Of a DNA stretch of 31,879 nucleotides, positions 6,591 to 31,879 are shown piece by piece. The position numbers and the translations under genes were made by a program. Position 1 is the stretch's first letter, and every line of letters starts with the position of its first letter. Source of the stretch: Candidatus Iainarchaeum sp. (GTDB lineage: Archaea > Iainarchaeota > Iainarchaeia > Iainarchaeales > JAZDDZ01). The notes under the pieces were generated by a model. It was not told where the DNA came from, searched no databases, and saw only the letters and a program-made list of their open reading frames with translations. The stretch lies in NCBI GenBank assembly GCA_043809245.1, contig JAZDDZ010000018.1, forward strand, positions 1 to 31,879, in the 5' to 3' direction.

Positions 6591-6687
6591 TGGGCCCGGC
6601 CGGATTCGAACCGACGACACTTGGTGTGCTTCCGCCAAATTCTCGGCGTTATAAGACCAATGCTCTGCCAGGCTGAGCTACGGGCCC
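6591..6687 (-). tRNA. tRNA-Ile with UAU anticodon and 23-nt intron at 37/38 (intron 6627-6649)
   Basis: Minus strand folds as GGGCCCG/CGGGCCC-A acceptor stem, GCTC/GAGC D-stem, TTGGT/ACCAA anticodon stem with CT-TAT-A, GTCGG-TTCGAAT-CCGGC T-arm. The intron forms a CGCCGA/TTGGCG stem and a relaxed bulge-helix-bulge. CCA is not encoded. Confidence 0.93.
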
Positions 6688-24318: not shown

Positions 24319-24709
24319 GTACCGCATTGTCTCCGTTGACCCAATCATTTTGATTGGAAAAAAAATTGTTTTAACAAAAAGGGCAGTTGACCCTTACAAC
24401 GGCTGCTGGGTTTTGCCCGGGGGAAGGATTGAAATGAATGAGACGGTTGAGCAGGCGTGCATGCGCGAGGCAAAAGAGGAAACAGGTTTAAAAGTTAAAA
24501 TCGTTAAAATGACCGGCGTTTACTCTTCGCCTAAAAGAGACCCGCGTGGAACCGTGGCCGTGGCTTTCCTTTGCAGCGGAAAAGGAAAACTGCGGTACGC
24601 GAAAGAAGAGGCATCAGGCATAAAGCTGTTTGACTTGGAGAAGCTGCCGAAGCGGTTGGGATTTGACCACAAAAAAATAATTGCGGATGCTGTTTCTAAA
24701 AAAAACTAA
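24305..24709 (+). CDS. NUDIX hydrolase (ADP-ribose pyrophosphatase-like)
   Basis: Nudix box GGRIEMNETVEQACMREAKEETG; RDPR and FDH motifs. Confidence 0.93.
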   Translation: MNQNRYRIVSVDPIILIGKKIVLTKRAVDPYNGCWVLPGGRIEMNETVEQACMREAKEETGLKVKIVKMTGVYSSPKRDPRGTVAVAFLCSGKGKLRYAKEEASGIKLFDLEKLPKRLGFDHKKIIADAVSKKN

Positions 24710-25116
24710 AGCGAGCCGAATTCTTTCTCCATTTCATCAGTTGTTAGAATCTTAACCCTTTGCTGCGCCTTAAAGCCCTTGTCATTGCTCCAGATAATCG
24801 TGTCTTCTTTTAGCGCGCAGGCAAGGTATAAAAGGTCTTTTACATCAGAGTGCAGGGAAGCCGCAGCAGGCAGAAAAGGCCCTAGTTCATTGTCTTTAAC
24901 GAACAATAACTGCGAAATCAAATTTCCGGACAAGTCAGCAAAATCCTCTGCATCCAAACCGCTTTTTTTCCGCAGATAATCCTTGTATTTCCTGAACTCC
25001 TGAAGGATGAAAAAAGGCGCGTAAAGCTCTATCTCCGGATTAAACCAGATTTTTCTGGTTTTGCCTTTCCTGATGAGAGCCGAGAAAAGAATATTGGCAT
25101 CAACCGTGACCTTCAT
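24706..25116 (-). CDS. PIN-domain toxin (VapC-like), paralogue of 6729-7136
   Basis: VDANILFSALI, DVKD..YLACAL, WSND. Confidence 0.9.
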   Translation of the reverse strand: MKVTVDANILFSALIRKGKTRKIWFNPEIELYAPFFILQEFRKYKDYLRKKSGLDAEDFADLSGNLISQLLFVKDNELGPFLPAAASLHSDVKDLLYLACALKEDTIIWSNDKGFKAQQRVKILTTDEMEKEFGSL

Positions 25117-25342
25117 CCAGAAGCCCCTTGACATGCTCTGCAATATCCTTGTTTACCTTCACTGAAAGCATTTCAACGTCTTTCTCGGCCAGCCTGCTTT
25201 TTTTCGCAAGCCTTTCGGCTTCCTCGAAATCACTGAGCTTTCTCTCAATCACAGCCCTAACCGCATTAGACCAGCGCACTTCAGGATGCTCATCCATCTT
25301 GCCCTTTATTTCATCCGTTATGGATAGAGTTATGTTCGGCAT
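25100..25342 (-). CDS. RHH-type antitoxin, paralogue of 7137-7364
   Basis: NITLSITD...EVRWSNAVR; overlaps the PIN start; CACATA-N5-TATGTG palindrome just upstream. Confidence 0.8.
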   Translation of the reverse strand: MPNITLSITDEIKGKMDEHPEVRWSNAVRAVIERKLSDFEEAERLAKKSRLAEKDVEMLSVKVNKDIAEHVKGLLDEGHG

Positions 25343-25385: not shown

Positions 25386-25691
25386 CTACCTTTTCTGCGT
25401 TGCGTCCTCGCGCATCATGTACTTAACCACAATGAACACAACAAGCGCGATTATCGCGAAGTCAATCAGCGCGCCTACAAAGTCCCCGACCAAAAATTTC
25501 GCGGGGCCGATTTCAAGAGTTGCAGCGCGCCAGTCTCCTCCTGGAATAATCACGCCAACAATCGGCATAACCAAATCATTGACGATTGCCGTGACAAGCT
25601 TGGTTGAAGCCGCACCTATGATGAACGCAACCGCCAAGCCTATCACTTGGTATTTTTTAAAAAAATCCAGAAACTCATTCGCAAAACCCAT
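25386..25691 (-). CDS. mscL: Large-conductance mechanosensitive channel
   Basis: EFLDFFKKYQVIGLAVAFIIGAA..KLVTAIVNDLVMP; G.F..ALIDF. Confidence 0.92.
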   Translation of the reverse strand: MGFANEFLDFFKKYQVIGLAVAFIIGAASTKLVTAIVNDLVMPIVGVIIPGGDWRAATLEIGPAKFLVGDFVGALIDFAIIALVVFIVVKYMMREDATQKR

Positions 25692-25806
25692 TCATTTCAC
25701 CTCAAAAAAAATCCGTTAAGGATGCCAAAATGTTGCCGCAAACCGAATAAAAAGCCTTTCATTGCGCAGGGGAATTCTTTTATTGATTGTGCTCTTTTTC
25801 TTTATC

Positions 25807-26448
25807 ATGCTTTTCGGGGATTACTATAACTTCGCGGTTTTATGCTTTGTTTCACTTATCGTAATAATTAATCCCCTTTCAAAAATTCTTGTGCTGCCGC
25901 CGCTCATCGGGCATTTTCCCAAAAAAGAGCAGACAGCCATGATAAGGAAAGGCATAACCATCGGCTATTTTTTGCTTGTCGGGTTCTCGGTTCTCGGCGG
26001 CTATTTGTTGAATTTTCTTGAAATAGACATTTTTTCCTTCCAGATTGCCGGGGGAATATTTCTTTTCTATATCGCCTTTGACTTGTTGACTGGGAGAGCG
26101 CATGAAAAAAACCTTGAAAAACGCGAAGAATACCAGCACACAAAAATGAACCAAATTGTTTTCTCCCCGCTTGCTTTCCCGATTTTTGCGGGAGCGGGAA
26201 GCATCGCGCTTGGAATGCTTTTGTTCACGCAGGCGCAGGACATTTTAATGAAAGGCGTATTCATCGCTGTTCTGACATTCATTTACCTGATAAACTATTT
26301 TTTCGCGGTTAACACGCCTTACCTCGGCAAAATAATAAAAGAAGAGGGAATAAACGTGATAGCAAAAGTCTTCGGCCTAATCATTGCAGCACTGGGCATA
26401 CAATTGATTCTAATCGGGTTGAAAACCGCGTTCACTGCGCTGGTTTGA
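25807..26448 (+). CDS. MarC-family membrane protein
   Basis: IINPL, FQIAGGI, PLAFPIFAGAGSI, KVFGLIIAALGIQ. Confidence 0.9.
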   Translation: MLFGDYYNFAVLCFVSLIVIINPLSKILVLPPLIGHFPKKEQTAMIRKGITIGYFLLVGFSVLGGYLLNFLEIDIFSFQIAGGIFLFYIAFDLLTGRAHEKNLEKREEYQHTKMNQIVFSPLAFPIFAGAGSIALGMLLFTQAQDILMKGVFIAVLTFIYLINYFFAVNTPYLGKIIKEEGINVIAKVFGLIIAALGIQLILIGLKTAFTALV

Positions 26449-26465
26449 ATAGATTTAAAAATAAA

Positions 26466-26490
26466 GCCTCAGTCCACCCATCTCTCGTCA
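26466..26490 (-). repeat. Copy 1 of the sRNA 3'-end repeat
   Basis: gcctcagtccacccatctctcgtca, 23/25 identical to 30546-30570. Confidence 0.9.
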
Positions 26491-26581
26491 AGGGTTAAGC
26501 TGTAACGAAACCCGTAGAATTCTTGGCGAGTTTTGGGGTGTGCGATAATGGTTTATTAACGCGGGAGTTAGTCACATAGCC

Positions 26582-27325
26582 TTAAATTTTTTCCAACAAA
26601 TCCGTGAGTTTGTTTTGCCCTATTTTCAGCATAGTGGCTGACGCTGCTATTGTGCCATCTATTTTGAACCTTTCAAGATTTTCCCTGAATCCCTTTGCAA
26701 GATTTTTATCCAAGCCCTTTGTTTTTGTTCTCCGGCCGTTTTTCACAAGCCACAAAATTGGATTATTTTCCAACAAAGCGTAAAGGTCTGCAATGTCTTT
26801 TGTTCTTTTGAATGCATCGCTTCTTCCGGGAATTGATTTCAGTTTCATTTCAACCATTATTTTTGGCGATGGAACCATTACCTGAATGTCCTTGATTTTC
26901 ACATGCCCTTTTTCTTTCTTGAAAACTTTTTTAAGCAATGGCTCGGGCATTGAGTGCCATATCTTGTTTGGGGCAGCAATGTCAAAGTAAACGTATGAAA
27001 GATTGTAAATCGGGTGTTTTTTGCTTTCTTCCAAGCCAAGCTCTTTTTCCGTTTCGCTATGGAAGATTTTTACCCAGCGAAAAGTCGAGTGAGGATGAAA
27101 ACCCATTTTCTCAAGTTTTTCTTCAATCGCTTTTGGCTTTATTTTTGCAGGGTCAAAGAAAATGTCAATGTCCCTTGAACCAATGTGCACGACACCCCTG
27201 CTTTTGAGAATGTAATGCACTGCCCAGCCACCCATAAGGCCAATTTCATCAATTTCGTTTTTTGCGAGGTTCTTGAAGAAAGCGTGCAAGAATTCGTCTG
27301 ACTTTTCAATCATCAGCTTTTCCAT
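26582..27325 (-). CDS. Nucleotidyltransferase, AbiEii-like (type IV TA toxin candidate)
   Basis: MGGWAV, SRDIDI, MKL...R..KD..D motifs. Confidence 0.78.
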   Translation of the reverse strand: MEKLMIEKSDEFLHAFFKNLAKNEIDEIGLMGGWAVHYILKSRGVVHIGSRDIDIFFDPAKIKPKAIEEKLEKMGFHPHSTFRWVKIFHSETEKELGLEESKKHPIYNLSYVYFDIAAPNKIWHSMPEPLLKKVFKKEKGHVKIKDIQVMVPSPKIMVEMKLKSIPGRSDAFKRTKDIADLYALLENNPILWLVKNGRRTKTKGLDKNLAKGFRENLERFKIDGTIAASATMLKIGQNKLTDLLEKI

Positions 27326-27329
27326 TGTT

Positions 27330-28037
27330 TCACAGCCTGTTGTTAAGCCATTCTTCCATCAGAAAATTAGCTTGTTCTTCAGCCAATCCGCCAAAGCTCA
27401 AGAGGTCGCTCAAGAGTATCGGCATTGGCACAACTGAAAAGCCCTTCACTTTTGCAGCGCCCTTGAAGAATGCATCTTGCGCCGTTGGAATCAGGAACAG
27501 GTTTGCCTGGCTTTTTTGCGCTTTCAGGCATTTTTTTGAAAGCAGGTATTTGCCCCATTTTTCTTCCTCTCCTTTCCTGATGTAAACGTGCACTTGGTCT
27601 GTTTTCACGTACTGCCTGTAAAGCTCGCTGCCGGCAAAAACCGTAAACGAATGCGGCAATTTTGATTCCCTAACCATTTTCAGGGTTTTAGAAAATTCAA
27701 GCGGCGAATGAAAATTAAGCGTTTTCAGGCTTGCAAACGGTCTCGCAAATGAAATCATTTTTACGATGTCACCGACCTTTGCAACCCTGTACTCTGAAGT
27801 TTTTGCATCCTTTGTTATGAAGCTGCTTTTTTCAAGTTCTTTTACAAAAGTGAATGTTGGGCCGTAAGTCAAGGCTAAGTCCATTGTTGGAAACCTTGTG
27901 TTCTTCTTGTAAACTGCGTCATCTTTTCCAAGCATCGCAGCCGCCCCTCTCCGCAGTTCTGAAATGCTCCACTTTTTTCCCTTGTTTTTCAGCATCCACA
28001 AAAGGGTAACAATCCTCTTCTCGGTCAACTCAAGCAT
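27330..28037 (-). CDS. AbiEi-like antitoxin/transcription regulator (N-terminal wHTH)
   Basis: HTH-like N-terminus; C-terminal ANLFLIP...VVPMPILLSDLL..GG.AEEQA.FL; directly upstream of the NTase. Confidence 0.72.
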   Translation of the reverse strand: MLELTEKRIVTLLWMLKNKGKKWSISELRRGAAAMLGKDDAVYKKNTRFPTMDLALTYGPTFTFVKELEKSSFITKDAKTSEYRVAKVGDIVKMISFARPFASLKTLNFHSPLEFSKTLKMVRESKLPHSFTVFAGSELYRQYVKTDQVHVYIRKGEEEKWGKYLLSKKCLKAQKSQANLFLIPTAQDAFFKGAAKVKGFSVVPMPILLSDLLSFGGLAEEQANFLMEEWLNNRL

Positions 28038-28172
28038 AAAATTATCTGTTTAACGAATAGTATATAAATACAACGAATATGCTACGGGGCCATAAAAAAG
28101 ACTATACCCCGCTATAATGCATTGTTTTTCAGTTTTTCACTGATTTTTAGTACTATAAGGTATTAAAAATAA

Positions 28173-28190
28173 GCCTCAGTCCGCCCATCT
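28173..28190 (-). repeat. Copy 2 of the sRNA 3'-end repeat
   Basis: gcctcagtccgcccatct, exact match to 30546-30563. Confidence 0.92.
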
Positions 28191-28219
28191 GACCCGAAAG
28201 ATGAGAAATATTTGGCATG

Positions 28220-29446
28220 TCAGAATTCATGCTCGATTTTTTTTGCCAGGTGTTTCAGGTTTTCAAGGGCAATCTGTTTCATCAGCAAGGCGAACTTTTT
28301 GTCATCCCTTTTTTCGCTTAATTTTGTAAGATTCATGTATTGGTCCGAGAACCCCACAGGAATTTTTATAAGGGGAAAATTGTTTTGGGTCAGCACTTTA
28401 AGGAATATGGCTCTTGATGTCCTGCTGTTGCCGTCAATGAAGGGATGCATGCGCTGGAATTCATTGTGTAAAAAAGCAGCCTCTTCAACTATCCCGACAG
28501 CCGTGGTTTTTTCCTTTTTTTGGGTTTTAATATTCCCGAAAAAATTCCTTAACAAACTGGGAAGTTCCCGCCATTCCGGGGTTTTAAAATTCGGGTTGCC
28601 TTTTATCCTCACATTATCTGTCCTAAATTGCCCGGCGCCAGCCGCCAATGAATTCATCGCAGTCCTGTGGAAGTCAAGAATTAAGTCTTCCGTTATTGCG
28701 CTTTTGGAAAAAATGAAGCCATCAAGAGCCTTTTTATAATCAAGAACCTGTTGCGCGTCTTTCGCTGGCTTTGAGGCAGGAGCCATATTTTGCATGATCA
28801 TCCTTTCGGTTTCTGATAAAGTGAGTGTGTTTCCTTCAAGGGAAAGGCTCACATAAATAAATCCTATTTCATCAAAATCAAATTTTTGCCTTTCAAGATT
28901 CTTGCATTCTGAAAAGTGTTTTTCTAGCATAGAGTCAACAAAACTTTCATCCAGACAGTCAACAAGCAAAGGGCATTTGACCCCAGTTTTGCCGAAAAAG
29001 TATTCCGCAAGCAATTGGGTGAACTGCGATGGCACGATTTTGCTCAAAAACGGTTTTCTTGACTCAACAATGGCAAACCCGTTTTTCGAAAGCTGCAGGG
29101 CAATTCTCCTGACTGTCTTTGCATCAAACGGCAAACCACTTATTTTACCTTTCTCCAAGCCAAGTTTAACGAATTCGGCAGTTTTCTCCGAAACAACCTT
29201 ATTGTAATCAATTCCATTCTTGAAGCAAAAGTAAACCAATCTTATTAGCTCACCGGCTTTTTTTGTTTTTGACAGGCTGAAAAGTCCTTTTTCATATATA
29301 ACCAGGCCATCCTTTTTTAGTTCCGCAAGCAGGTTATATGCTGCATTGTACGATGTTTGCTTCTTGCCAATCTTTTTTACTATATCAGGGCATGAAATTT
29401 CAGGGTATAGGCCCACAACCAAAAAAACGTCCAAACGTGAAACCAT
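28220..29446 (-). CDS. Fic-domain protein with N-terminal wHTH-like extension
   Basis: SLSLEGN inhibitory-type helix; HPFIDGNSRTSR Fic motif. Confidence 0.9.
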   Translation of the reverse strand: MVSRLDVFLVVGLYPEISCPDIVKKIGKKQTSYNAAYNLLAELKKDGLVIYEKGLFSLSKTKKAGELIRLVYFCFKNGIDYNKVVSEKTAEFVKLGLEKGKISGLPFDAKTVRRIALQLSKNGFAIVESRKPFLSKIVPSQFTQLLAEYFFGKTGVKCPLLVDCLDESFVDSMLEKHFSECKNLERQKFDFDEIGFIYVSLSLEGNTLTLSETERMIMQNMAPASKPAKDAQQVLDYKKALDGFIFSKSAITEDLILDFHRTAMNSLAAGAGQFRTDNVRIKGNPNFKTPEWRELPSLLRNFFGNIKTQKKEKTTAVGIVEEAAFLHNEFQRMHPFIDGNSRTSRAIFLKVLTQNNFPLIKIPVGFSDQYMNLTKLSEKRDDKKFALLMKQIALENLKHLAKKIEHEF

Positions 29447-29529
29447 ACTATTAAATTACTGCAAAAACTTAATAAATATGCCTATAAATGACTAAATATT
29501 AAGTTTTTATTAATTTTAAGTCCTTTATA

Positions 29530-29547
29530 GCCTCAGTCCGCCCATCT
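29530..29547 (-). repeat. Copy 3 of the sRNA 3'-end repeat
   Basis: gcctcagtccgcccatct, exact match. Confidence 0.92.
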
Positions 29548-29595
29548 GACTGAAAGGTGAGGCAGTACTTGCACGTGGTTGGGGGGCAATATATT

Positions 29596-30504
29596 TCAGA
29601 CTTTCCTTCTTGCTTTTGTGCTTTGTATCTTTGACCATGTTTTTGCTCTCTTGAATCTTGCTACCAACTTTTCAAGAGGCTCGGCAGCCGCTATTGGAAG
29701 GAAGCCTAACTTGGCCCTCAGGCTAAGCTCCTTAAAATGACTAATCTCCCTTGAACGTATCTTCTTAGCGTCAGAATAATAGGGTTCTTTCAAATCCGGA
29801 CGAATCTTAAAGAGGGTTCGCCTTTCAACTGCGTGCCTAACCCTTTGCTTCATGTGGTCCTTCAGGCTGGGATGCCTAAAATATACTTTGGCATCATAAA
29901 GAACTTTTATTCTGCCTTTATATTCAAGGTTGATATACCTGTCATCGCCTATATAAGGATGCTCGGGCAGAGGCTTGTTAACTAAGACACTCTTCCTCGC
30001 TGCAAAGCCCATGCCAGTTAGCCTATAGAGTTTATGTTTTATACCTATCCCTGAACCTTCGGCATAGAATGCGGCAAGAGGCCTCCTTTTTTTGGTTGCG
30101 GTAAAAACAGAGGTGGGAACAGGAACTGGTGCAGCGAAATCAATCTTCCTGTCTCTTCTTAATTCTCCTGTCACCTTGCCTATCGAATCCTTCGCAACAA
30201 CGACATCTGCATCAGAGAAATAGATAACATCTGCTTTTCTGCTGGAGTTTTTGGTAATGGTATTGATAGCCCGGTTTTTTCCAGGTTCCTTATTTTCGAT
30301 AAGGTTGATTTCAGGAATCTCTTTTTGGAGATTTCTAACAATTTCGGCAGTTCTGTCAGTTGAGTCGTTCACGCATACGATAATCTCCCTGCCTGACTTT
30401 GAGGAATCTTTCCATGCATCTGACTTAACAATAGACCGTATAGTAGCCTCAATGGATTCCTCCTCATTCCTTGCAGGAATCCCAACACAAAGTAAATCCC
30501 CCAT
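29596..30504 (-). CDS. GT2 family glycosyltransferase
   Basis: IPARNEE, NDSTD.T, GKNRAIN, DAD, DD, QRVR; ATG 30504 preferred over the ORF-track start inside the sRNA. Confidence 0.88.
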   Translation of the reverse strand: MGDLLCVGIPARNEEESIEATIRSIVKSDAWKDSSKSGREIIVCVNDSTDRTAEIVRNLQKEIPEINLIENKEPGKNRAINTITKNSSRKADVIYFSDADVVVAKDSIGKVTGELRRDRKIDFAAPVPVPTSVFTATKKRRPLAAFYAEGSGIGIKHKLYRLTGMGFAARKSVLVNKPLPEHPYIGDDRYINLEYKGRIKVLYDAKVYFRHPSLKDHMKQRVRHAVERRTLFKIRPDLKEPYYSDAKKIRSREISHFKELSLRAKLGFLPIAAAEPLEKLVARFKRAKTWSKIQSTKARRKV

Positions 30505-30545
30505 GGAGAAATAATGTTTAACAAGAATATAAGTTTTTCCTTTTC

Positions 30546-30608
30546 GCCTCAGTCCGCCCATCTATCGTCATCCCTTTCGGTCAGAGTCATCGTCAGTTCA
30601 TCATCGGC
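30546..30608 (-). ncRNA. Box C/D methylation-guide sRNA (63 nt)
   Basis: Minus strand reads GCCG-ATGATGA(C)-ACTGACGATGACT-CTGA(D')-CCGAAAGGG-ATGACGA(C')-TAGATGGGCGGA-CTGA(D)-GGC: 13- and 12-nt guides, GNRA hairpin, GCC/GGC terminal stem, TATA-like box upstream. Confidence 0.88.
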
Positions 30609-30629
30609 AATAATGTAAGTTGAGTGAAG

Positions 30630-30640
30630 AGTTTTTAACT
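30630..30640 (-). promoter_or_regulatory. TATA-like box of the C/D sRNA
   Basis: TTAAAAACT about 22-30 nt upstream of the predicted 5' end, preceded by an A-rich tract. Confidence 0.55.
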
Positions 30641-30647
30641 TGTTTTT

Positions 30648-31565
30648 TCAGCTTCCGATTTGATTCGTCCATTCTTCGGCTGTTTTTTCCGCGGATTCCT
30701 GGCGCTTTCTGATAACTTCATTAATAACATTGCTTGCCGGGTCTGTGTTGTTTTTGCATTTTGTCGCCCAATCATCAGTGTATTTTACTGAAGTGAATAT
30801 TTTTTCCAAAACCGCTTTTGATTCTTCCCACTGGCTTGCCGGAGAGGTATAACCCCAAACGTTAATCCACCAGGTAGTGCCATCCCCAAGGTCAAAAGTC
30901 TGGACAAAATATTTGCCCCTCATTTGCGTTGCATTATTTTCATAAGTTGCTTCAAAGACCTTGGCATCGCATGCCGCAAGGCCTTGAATGCAGACAGACT
31001 GCGCGAACACAGGGGTCAATTCAGCATCAACTCCAACAACCTGCAAATTGCTCGAGCCTGAAAGCGGGGCAACAATCCGGGCAGACGCTGCTTCTGCTGC
31101 AAGGAATGCGGAGACTGGCACATCGTCAATTCCAGCCAAACCGTAAAGCTTGTACATTTGCCTTGCATCCTCAGACTTTAAAACCATTATTTGATTCGCC
31201 ATGTAAGCCGAGCTCTTTCCGCTGGAATCACCCACAGACCAGTTTACAGTGCAATTGTCAACCTGTTTTTCCTCGGCAGCCCAGCCTGCAGGAACTTGAA
31301 GCGTGATTGAATTGTCCTGGGCTTTCCACTCACTGAATTCCAGCCCTGTTTCTTCACCAGGCGCTTGTGCATTAGAATTGTTATATGTTGCCGTGCCGCC
31401 TCCAACTCCACCTTCCCCTTTAGCGCCTGTTTCAGCAGCTGAATTAAGGCCATTAGCGTCTGCCTGCTGTCCGGTGTTTTGAGTTCTTTCAAGAGGCTGT
31501 TGAGTGCAGCCAATAAATAGAACAATGACCAAAATCAGGCAAGCAAGAAAAATTCGCTTTTTCAT
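30648..31565 (-). CDS. Predicted lipoprotein, hypothetical
   Basis: MKKR + hydrophobic + FIGC lipobox; low-complexity linker; SITLQVPAGW start of a globular domain. Confidence 0.8.
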   Translation of the reverse strand: MKKRIFLACLILVIVLFIGCTQQPLERTQNTGQQADANGLNSAAETGAKGEGGVGGGTATYNNSNAQAPGEETGLEFSEWKAQDNSITLQVPAGWAAEEKQVDNCTVNWSVGDSSGKSSAYMANQIMVLKSEDARQMYKLYGLAGIDDVPVSAFLAAEAASARIVAPLSGSSNLQVVGVDAELTPVFAQSVCIQGLAACDAKVFEATYENNATQMRGKYFVQTFDLGDGTTWWINVWGYTSPASQWEESKAVLEKIFTSVKYTDDWATKCKNNTDPASNVINEVIRKRQESAEKTAEEWTNQIGS

Positions 31566-31657
31566 TGATTATATGTAGTTTTCCTAAAATAAAAAACTAT
31601 CGAAAGAGGAAATTAAACCGATTTTATATTATCTAGAGCGGATCTAGTTAATTGCCG

Positions 31658-31676
31658 GTTCATCATCGGCATTAAT
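31658..31676 (-). repeat. Copy of the sRNA 5' end (box C region)
   Basis: gttcatcatcggcattaat versus gttcatcatcggcaataat at 30596-30614 (18/19). Confidence 0.85.
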
Positions 31677-31738
31677 TCAGGGCAATAAAAAGTTTTTAAA
31701 GTGAAACAAAAAGGGCAGGGCGTTGAATCCCGACGGGG

Positions 31739-31879
31739 GTAAGTGCTAACCGCTTATGGCTTTTTTGAGGGTTGGGTAGAGGGGTTTGCCTTGTTGTTTC
31801 CATGTGGCGAACATGGAAGTGATTGTTTCCATTGTTCGTGCGCCGGTTTCGCGGCGTAGTCCGCCAATGATTTTTCTGA
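31739..31879 (-). mobile_element. Right end of a second IS66-family copy, inverted, truncated by the window edge
   Basis: Reverse complement of 1-141 with 4 mismatches; begins GTAAGTGCTAACCGC. Confidence 0.8.

Follow-up and report, generated by a model that had tools for sequence, protein, structure and literature searches.

In the 31,879 nucleotides (nt) of contig JAZDDZ010000018.1 of Candidatus Iainarchaeum sp. (assembly GCA_043809245.1), hereafter the window, an intact gene for a box C/D small RNA (sRNA) is followed downstream by three tandem units, each of which ends in a copy of the last 18 nt of that gene. The window is the entire contig C18 of genome G000, an assembly of 55 contigs and 1.48 Mb. 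The locus is probably a chromosomal gene-cassette array, anchored on the gene of a conserved sRNA with a predicted target in 16S ribosomal RNA (rRNA), in which cassettes recombine at the shared 18 nt, here termed the core. A bolder proposition, to which we would give slightly less than an even chance, is that the array belongs to an undescribed integron-like gene-capture system that evolved independently in the Iainarchaeales. Such a system would use the sRNA 3′ end as primary site together with a dedicated cassette site of about 45 nt, would depend on a recombinase encoded elsewhere (a repurposed XerA or an unrecognised enzyme), and would spread promoter-bearing toxin and defence cassettes between families.

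The anchoring sRNA and the core repeats

The features that define a box C/D sRNA are all present in the intact gene: C and D boxes, a terminal stem, internal D′ and C′ boxes and guides of about 12 nt (Table 1). The D′ guide has 12-13 nt, and a short loop separates the D′ box from the C′ box. In a permissive Rfam scan of positions 26350-31750 no family reached its gathering score. The best match was to sR2 (27.2 bits, E 0.005, gathering score 42), those to sR1, sR18 and sR41 scored lower, and the matches to archaeal CD-box families were confined to the intact copy. With the sR2/sR1-type sRNAs of Rfam the anchor shares boxes, spacing, terminal stem and complementarity to rRNA. The 16S rRNA gene of the same genome (C42:21882-23371, minus strand) holds 9 contiguous nt complementary to the D guide (C42:22005), in what we take to be the decoding-centre region, and, at C42:22348, 10 contiguous nt that pair exactly with the D′ guide. 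Records labelled Hadarchaeota, Thermoproteota and Nitrososphaerota have ordinary single-copy C/D sRNAs that end in this D guide and D box. By these features, the anchor at 30546-30608 is a genuine box C/D sRNA, predicted to target 16S rRNA.

Table 1. Coordinates of the array, its anchor and adjoining features in the window
Feature	Position	Strand	Evidence or remark
Intact box C/D sRNA, docking gene	30546-30608	-	boxes, Rfam sub-threshold matches, 16S complementarity
sRNA terminal stem GCC/GGC	30606-30608 with 30546-30548	-	
sRNA C box AUGAUGA	30598-30604	-	
sRNA D′ box CUGA	30581-30584	-	
sRNA C′ box AUGACGA	30565-30571	-	one departure from consensus
sRNA D guide	30553-30564	-	exactly 12 nt, UAGAUGGGCGGA
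sRNA D box CUGA	30549-30552	-	
Core 18-mer AGATGGGCGGACTGAGGC at sRNA 3′ end	30546-30563	-	last 11 nt of D guide, D box and GGC
Cassette 1, 1016 bp, GT2 glycosyltransferase	29530-30545	-	open reading frame (ORF) 29596-30507; Pfam Glycos_transf_2, E 2e-20
Cassette 2, 1357 bp, winged helix-turn-helix-Fic protein, 408 amino acids (aa)	28173-29529	-	ORF 28220-29446; Pfam Fic, E 4e-16
Conserved arm of cassette 2 end, about 27 nt	28191-28217	-	alignment of 39 sites, inverted-repeat test
Cassette 3, 1707 bp, 235-aa protein and 247-aa nucleotidyltransferase	26466-28172	-	27330-28037 (235 aa) and 26582-27325 (247 aa)
Lipoprotein gene (30648-31565) and leader resembling sRNA 5′ half (31651-31676)	30648-31676	-	repeat match
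MarC-family membrane protein gene	25762-26448	+	Pfam MarC, E 4e-44; convergent with array; downstream chromosomal flank
End of IS66-family insertion sequence, multi-copy, breaking contig	31739-31879	.	sequence matches at other contig ends

The core, AGATGGGCGGACTGAGGC, occurs four times on the minus strand. The copies at 30546-30563, 29530-29547 and 28173-28190 are exact, and that at 26466-26483 has one mismatch. All lie in direct orientation, those outside the gene being downstream of it, and the spacings between them are 1016, 1357 and 1707 bp. A prediction made earlier from the window alone (hereafter the original prediction) had described this recurrence of the 18-mer, and had described the units as each holding one gene or operon co-oriented with the sRNA; both descriptions agree with our analysis. 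At up to three mismatches, four matches in the window compare with 0.03 expected, and four were reached in none of 100 shuffles. At the same threshold the 18-mer is absent from the rest of G000 (all 55 contigs, 1.48 Mb, scanned) and is thus confined to one locus, as the original prediction required. Chance and a genome-wide repeat are ruled out by the shuffles and by this restriction. The core at the sRNA 3′ end may be regarded as a functional analogue of attI or attB.

Distribution across the order

A search at up to two mismatches covered 196 genomes of the order to which G000 belongs (DPANN archaea, with records labelled Candidatus Iainarchaeum). The 18-mer was found in 88 of them, and 18 had at least two co-oriented copies on one contig, with a spacing of at least 0.4 kb in 15 of these 18. 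Genome G172 has the most, 11 co-oriented copies within 10 kb; the repeats of G126, G143 and G158 amount to no more than short tandem duplications (83-184 nt). The multi-copy count is an undercount, given the fragmentation of the assemblies and the position of some copies at contig ends (G053). One match with two mismatches inside a coding region of G035 was treated as noise.

A scan for the exact 17-mer in one genome per species (185,579 species) gave 83 matching stretches. All records with multiple copies were genomes of this order, mostly labelled Candidatus Iainarchaeum, a few with another phylum label or none. Single bacterial matches were set aside as chance, since by our own estimate about 70 are expected in 596 Gb. 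The exact 17-mer had no match in 2.9 million viral contigs, and a viral or plasmid carrier of the site was discarded on this ground.

Twenty loci were fetched; 18 loci, the window included, have more than one copy. An sRNA-type copy with C box and D′ guide heads the array in 14 of these 18, two begin with a half-sRNA (C′-like box, guide and D box) just after a long ORF, and two are unclear. Successive copies delimit 43 intervals, whose lengths span 84-5430 bp around a median of 1032. The same architecture is seen in nine metagenome contigs found by the pattern of the cassette site. Misassembly of the array, a concern attached to the original prediction, is excluded by the recurrence of this architecture in 18 independent assemblies of the 196 and in the nine metagenome contigs.

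Some anchors are more complex. Several genomes have two sRNA-type copies, one of which combines a long terminal stem with a C-box variant of the UGUGGA type and the other of which has no C box (L049 4750-4930, L056 8090-9150, L061 1-950, L064 7960-9030), sometimes with a cassette between them. The sixth of twelve copies in G172 (L049 8790-8855) is preceded by D′-box- and C′-box-like sequence, which suggests two fused arrays or an internal duplication of the anchor.

Cassettes, their mobility and their cargo

In all three window cassettes the cargo is one gene or one gene pair in the orientation of the sRNA. Cassettes 1 and 2 end in an arm followed by the core (cores 29530-29547 and 28173-28190, arms 29548-29574 and 28191-28217, respectively). 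The Fic protein of cassette 2 matches the PADLOC candidate defence families PDC-S04 and SoFic. The gene pair of cassette 3 had been read as AbiEi/AbiEii-like, and this now appears weaker than claimed: the 247-aa nucleotidyltransferase matches NTP_transf_5 (E 1e-5) and AbiEii (E 2.5e-3), both below the Pfam cut-off, and its 235-aa partner matched no family in Pfam, PADLOC or NCBIfam. Upstream of the terminal core at 26466, 8 of 9 nt match the C′-box region of the sRNA; the terminal site may accordingly be described as a longer sRNA fragment, as expected of the original displaced 3′ end.

The cassettes begin with AT-rich sequence in which TATA-like stretches lie 40-135 nt ahead of the ORF, and they probably carry their own promoters. 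The glycosyltransferase frame is open upstream to an ATG inside the sRNA core, which would give 321 aa as against 303 aa from the next ATG. This upstream ATG is common to G000 (29596-30561, minus) and G172 (L049:9589-10554) and could be due to chance.

All-against-all blastn of the 43 intervals revealed homologues of all three window cassettes in arrays of other families, at 83-93% nt identity. The glycosyltransferase cassette matches cassette 7 of G172, a member of another family, at 92.7% over 954 nt starting from cassette position 2. The Fic cassette is 86% identical end to end to a G172 cassette of the same length, 1357 bp, and 75-78% identical to cassettes of G093, G095 and G050, while the nucleotidyltransferase module matches a G050 cassette at 83% over 1290 nt. 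Housekeeping DNA, that of the first 20 kb of the window, shows only 64-75% identity to G172, G050 and G095, and the cassettes are therefore far more alike than their host genomes. Relatives of the nucleotidyltransferase module without a core nearby lie in L003 (G001:C4) and L007 (G035:C18); they match 3′ gene ends plus downstream untranslated sequence at 85% over 130 nt (G001) and 79% over 56 nt (G035).

The order of the cassettes differs as well: glycosyltransferase, Fic, nucleotidyltransferase in the window; nucleotidyltransferase, Fic in G050; and glycosyltransferase, X, Fic in G172. In a public sequencing run, a contig of a relative (about 85-90% identity) passes from the end of the nucleotidyltransferase cassette through a core into the start of the Fic cassette. 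This run held 6% of the sampled words and yielded the relative's contigs only, and it is uninformative on excision in the G000 strain.

Differences are also evident within a genus. In one, G093 reads sRNA, A, B, flank and G095 reads sRNA, B, Fic, flank; B is 92% identical in the two, the outer flanks are homologous on either side, and the breakpoints coincide with cores. Five further species of this genus differ again, one of them having no cassette site within 1.5 kb of the sRNA. At a second locus in the genus, one species has a Fic cassette and the other a reversed toxin-antitoxin pair. In G027 the sRNA is followed, after 10 nt, by sequence that in the congeneric G172 resumes about 450 nt past the last core; the upstream flanks of G027 and G172 did not align. 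At the same locus, related genomes thus hold different cassettes in different orders, and the site is empty in one congeneric genome, the outcome that the original prediction had named for this comparison. Judging from these alignments, cassettes have been exchanged between families and gained and lost at exact core boundaries.

The cargo of the arrays was surveyed in 64 ORFs of at least 70 aa, obtained by a crude greedy ORF call. Of these, 52 are co-oriented with the sRNA. Pfam assigned seven to Fic, six each to Polbeta/NTP_transf_2 and HTH_24, five to HEPN, three each to HicA and RHH, two each to GT2, MqsA and UPF0175, and one to MazF. The cassettes have a median of about 1 kb and hold one gene or one gene pair; one interval of 5.4 kb holds transporter genes. 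By annotation, then, the cargo is dominated by toxin-antitoxin and defence genes, as in chromosomal integrons; passages of PMC9668308 report cargo rich in such genes for bacterial and archaeal integron cassettes.

The cassette-end site

Alignment of 39 cassette-end sites, which is almost gap-free with a mean column identity of 72%, defines an element of about 45 nt in which an arm (consensus TGTAAnTAAnnCTTCATCTTTCGGGTA) stands directly 5′ of the core. The arm, of about 27 nt, was missed in the original prediction. It is replaced in the intact sRNA by the C′ box and loop. The arms form sequence classes that travel with cassette lineages, and the two canonical sites of the window lack the TGTAA part. 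The site also has a T-rich tract, CATCTTTC or CATTTTTC.

An inverted repeat of 7 nt with an 8-nt spacer is formed by yyCAyCT in the arm and AGATGGG, the first 7 nt of the extended core. These pair in 91.6% of cells, G-U included, versus 30-64% after a shift of the partner by 1-3 columns. A second candidate helix was rejected since it pairs in only 69% of cells, and so was a hairpin by the best-helix statistic, which at 6.8 is barely above the 5.95 of shuffles. The attC sites of integrons have terminal core sites, GTTRRRY and its complement. The consensus of the 39 sites is without attC termini and there is no consensus hairpin, in keeping with the earlier remark that the sites do not look like attC. 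The cassette-end site is thus best described as conserved sequence with possible inverted half-sites and not as a demonstrated hairpin; an attC-like structure is unproven.

Consensus arm and core contain CATCTT-N6-AAGATG. A search of G000 for a second such site gave 19 loose matches, among which the cassette site is the only perfect one. Directly after the sRNA or the last core, two families have a conserved element of about 60 nt (CAGTTTCGGCTGT, followed by a perfect 12-bp hairpin around CATCTGCGATG). It lies at about 7300-7370 in L063 and 8388-8460 in L065, is found also in L040, L142, L149 and L179, is inverted beside a core in L060, and shares the word CTCATCT with the cassette arms.

Search for a recombinase

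No tyrosine recombinase was found among 402 ORFs in 21 loci by blastp (E 1e-4) against a set from five array genomes or by profile; the profile included some neighbouring ORFs, and the blastp result is the firmer. The 25 commonest of 67 Pfam families in 52 large flanking ORFs include no integrase or transposase, PF00589 has no match on C18, and the nine metagenome contigs found by the cassette-site pattern include no circular or integrase-linked form.

Elsewhere in the genomes the picture differs by family. PF00589 is matched 3-7 times in each of the five array genomes, on other contigs or far from the arrays. Serine recombinases occur in one of the five, where the copy is broken, IS110 in none, and Y1/IS200 transposases in three, with none found in G172 or G134; not being consistently present in the five genomes, these three families were set aside as the cassette enzyme. 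Of the classical recombinase families, only tyrosine recombinases were found in each of the five array genomes tested. Across the order, PF00589 has a match in 186 of 196 genomes, with up to 11 tyrosine recombinase matches per genome. An XerA-like protein, which scores about 160 bits against PF00589, is encoded in G000 and most of the order, and in the array genome G127, which is 86% complete, it is the only PF00589 match. In G000 it lies on C23, and five other tyrosine recombinases of this genome lie on C27, C4, C8, C49 and C19.

The C27 tyrosine recombinase of G000 (430 aa, G000:C27:7223-8512, L155) has a copy of 90% identity in G113 and copies of 70-78% in other families. This cross-family identity exceeds the conservation of XerA (61-64%), and the C27 protein probably belongs, as integrase, to a different mobile element. 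As the cassette recombinase it is ruled out by its patchy distribution, which is detailed below.

Mechanism and rival explanations

The array may have been built as follows. A circularised or incoming cassette would recombine through its core with the sRNA 3′ end or with a resident cassette site. The incoming core would rebuild the intact sRNA and a core copy would be left downstream, so that repeated insertion would yield a tandem, co-oriented array. Exchange inside the identity block, which extends from the guide to the final base of the sRNA gene, or at the 5′ edge of this block, would rebuild the sRNA from cassette-borne sequence, and the logic would be the same as in integration at the 3′ end of tRNA and tmRNA genes. 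The core would be kept under the same selection as the sRNA; we propose that it is nearly invariant because any cassette that inserted with a faulty core would leave a damaged sRNA.

We infer that cassettes are exchanged site-specifically by an enzyme acting in trans. A tyrosine recombinase is the most plausible candidate, because no other classical family was found in all five array genomes and because the XerA-like protein is near-universal. If the locus is indeed a platform for mobile cassettes, the chances that a trans-acting site-specific recombinase drives it are about even, RadA-type homologous recombination at the repeats is rather unlikely, and some other process accounts for what is left. 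The original prediction held that small cassettes are captured repeatedly by a recombinase acting in trans. Repeated capture of recombinase-less cassettes stands; the enzyme in trans follows only from its absence in cis.

Several observations weigh against a dedicated cassette system. No recombinase could be tied to the arrays, and the C27-type integrase of G000 is patchy (23 of 196 genomes at E 1e-40) and absent from the array genomes G172, G093 and G090. Homologous recombination could proceed between direct repeats of 18-45 nt with no dedicated enzyme. Neither excised circles nor empty alleles nor insertion polymorphisms were observed in any single population, and the one public run with part of the locus consists of a relative's contigs. 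Cassette 3 is without a canonical arm and ends in a non-canonical site whose core (26466-26483) has one mismatch. Its homology to the G050 cassette spans 1290 of 1707 nt, from about 320 nt into the unit to about 100 nt before its end, and so does not break at the core. In G001 and G035, relatives of the cassette 3 genes are found outside arrays. Twelve of the 64 array ORFs are reversed, and in G172 a site resembling the sRNA 3′ half stands in mid-array. The inverted repeat of the arm shows no compensatory covariation, because its 3′ side is invariant; RNAalifold finds no consensus helix in the arm; and folding z-scores are -0.1 to -1.2 for six of seven cassette-end sites, the other having -4.4.

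Under a rival explanation there is no dedicated site-specific system at all. The element of about 45 nt would then be kept for a reason at the RNA level (3′-end formation, protection or protein binding), and the cassettes would be shuffled by RadA homologous recombination after DNA uptake. Such a scheme agrees with the lack of a recombinase in cis in the 21 loci, with the failure of any recombinase family to correlate with the arrays and with the XerA-like enzyme being the only one seen in G127. The T-rich tract could act as an archaeal terminator, pairing that tolerates G-U on the sense strand fits an RNA role, and direct repeats of 18-45 nt suffice for short-homology recombination in archaea. 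Yet it leaves unexplained why an arm without a counterpart in the sRNA is conserved across families, and why arrays seed almost only at one sRNA. Moreover, folding is no better than in shuffles for most sites and insertion of a circle through a single 18-nt homology would be inefficient, and we consider this explanation unlikely.

An intact gene with displaced 3′ fragments is also the classical signature of integrase-bearing plasmids or viruses, and serial integrations of these into the sRNA gene might have decayed by deletions that left one gene each. The longer sRNA fragment kept by the terminal copy at 26466, as expected of the original displaced 3′ end, and the up to 11 tyrosine recombinase matches in genomes of the order would be in line with such a history. 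The same unit length and boundaries are found in different families, however (1357 bp in G000 and G172), none of the 43 intervals in 18 loci (median 1032 bp) has an integrase, and the 17-mer is absent from the 2.9 million viral contigs. Independent decay to identical boundaries being implausible, this history is very improbable. A classical integron with IntI, attI and attC that merely overlaps the sRNA is scarcely credible, even though a co-oriented array with cargo rich in toxin-antitoxin genes would suit it (cf. passages of PMC9668308). There is no tyrosine recombinase on C18 or near any of the 21 loci, the consensus of the 39 sites has neither attC terminal inverted core sites nor a hairpin, the shared core is 18 nt of sRNA, and the cassettes start with AT-rich, TATA-like stretches.

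Relation to known systems

With integrons, including superintegrons and the archaeal integrons described in passages of PMC9668308, the sRNA arrays share tandem, co-oriented and recombinase-less cassettes, an end site conserved within the family and a distinct primary site. Exchange and reordering of cassettes between genomes and a cargo rich in toxin-antitoxin and defence genes are likewise common to both. An adjacent IntI and attC are defining for integrons, whereas the sRNA array has neither. Its primary site is the 3′ end of a box C/D sRNA gene, its cassette sites share a block of 18 nt and not a few bases, and its cassettes appear to carry their own promoters.

The likeness to tandem islands at tRNA and tmRNA genes (PMC8371274) lies in the intact RNA gene with direct repeats of its 3′ end, the rebuilding of that gene and the serial insertion at one conserved, essential target. 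Those islands encode their own integrase beside the att site and the sRNA-array cassettes do not; here the target is a methylation-guide sRNA, the elements have 0.4-2.4 kb, and a shared cassette pool has a common arm. The targets of archaeal tyrosine recombinases given in this 2021 review (PMC8371274) are tRNA genes, intergenic sites and protein-coding genes, and the words sRNA and snoRNA do not occur in its main text. No C/D sRNA gene was described as an integration platform in the literature searched, subscription journals and supplements being outside its scope. We conclude that an sRNA-anchored cassette system has not been described in that literature.

Xer-dependent dif modules (pdif) of Acinetobacter plasmids are recombinase-less, often hold toxin-antitoxin genes, are bounded by short sites and use a host recombinase. 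The array resembles them in its small recombinase-less modules, often toxin-antitoxin pairs, in its short bounding sites and, as we suppose for the array, in relying on a recombinase encoded elsewhere. Archaeal dif is an 11-6-11 inverted repeat according to passages of PMC2958812, whereas the cassette site is an imperfect repeat of about 7-8-7 and the sites of the array are all direct.

Integron-like gene capture is the best-understood prokaryotic route for collecting and shuffling single adaptive genes and has so far been tied to IntI and attC. An independent solution in DPANN archaea, with no adjacent integrase, would, if true, show that cassette platforms are a convergent strategy. Methylation-guide RNAs would then form a new target class among the RNA genes used for integration, and the arrays would offer a tractable handle on the horizontal transfer of defence and toxin genes in uncultivated archaea with small genomes. 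The cassette site is short and well defined, and the recombinase question is thus directly testable in vitro.

Neighbouring features of the window

The lipoprotein gene upstream of the sRNA had been counted as a fourth unit of 1062 bp, bounded by copies of the sRNA 5′ end. The 5′-end fragment is real, since the leader at 31651-31676 matches the sRNA 5′ end in 22 of 26 nt at a spacing of 1062 bp, but the unit does not appear to be a cassette. A block in G134, of another family, shares 80% identity with leader and lipoprotein gene across 1046 nt; in that genome the sRNA follows 4.3 kb downstream of the block, after two intervening genes. The lipoprotein matched no Pfam, PADLOC or NCBIfam family. 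Its leader resembles the sRNA 5′ half in stem, C box, a related guide and a D′-like box, as is seen also in L056 at about 2839-2948, and may represent a split or half sRNA or a shared promoter module. On this comparison, the unit is a conserved chromosomal neighbour with a putative old partial duplication of the sRNA 5′ half.

The last 141 bases of the window (31739-31879) and its first 142 bases are the ends of an IS66-family element of about 1.54 kb. Ends of this element sit at no fewer than 12 contig ends of G000, at least, and the assembly is broken on both sides of C18; the true upstream flank of the sRNA locus is unassembled because the element breaks the contig. A full copy at G000:C49:55085-56621 (L152) encodes a 446-aa transposase with DDE_Tnp_IS66 and zf-IS66, and the element ends match G172 and G050 at 81-83%. 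The element was dismissed as cassette mobiliser, adjacency being the sole link.

The G+C content is slightly lower in the array (0.39-0.44) than in the flank (0.41-0.49). Just past the MarC gene are genes for a PIN_2-domain protein (24706-25143, minus) and an MscL channel (25386-25691, minus). A tRNA gene of 97 nt at 6591-6687 (minus; Rfam 56.7 bits), called tRNA-Tyr by ARAGORN with an odd anticodon reading, probably contains an intron.

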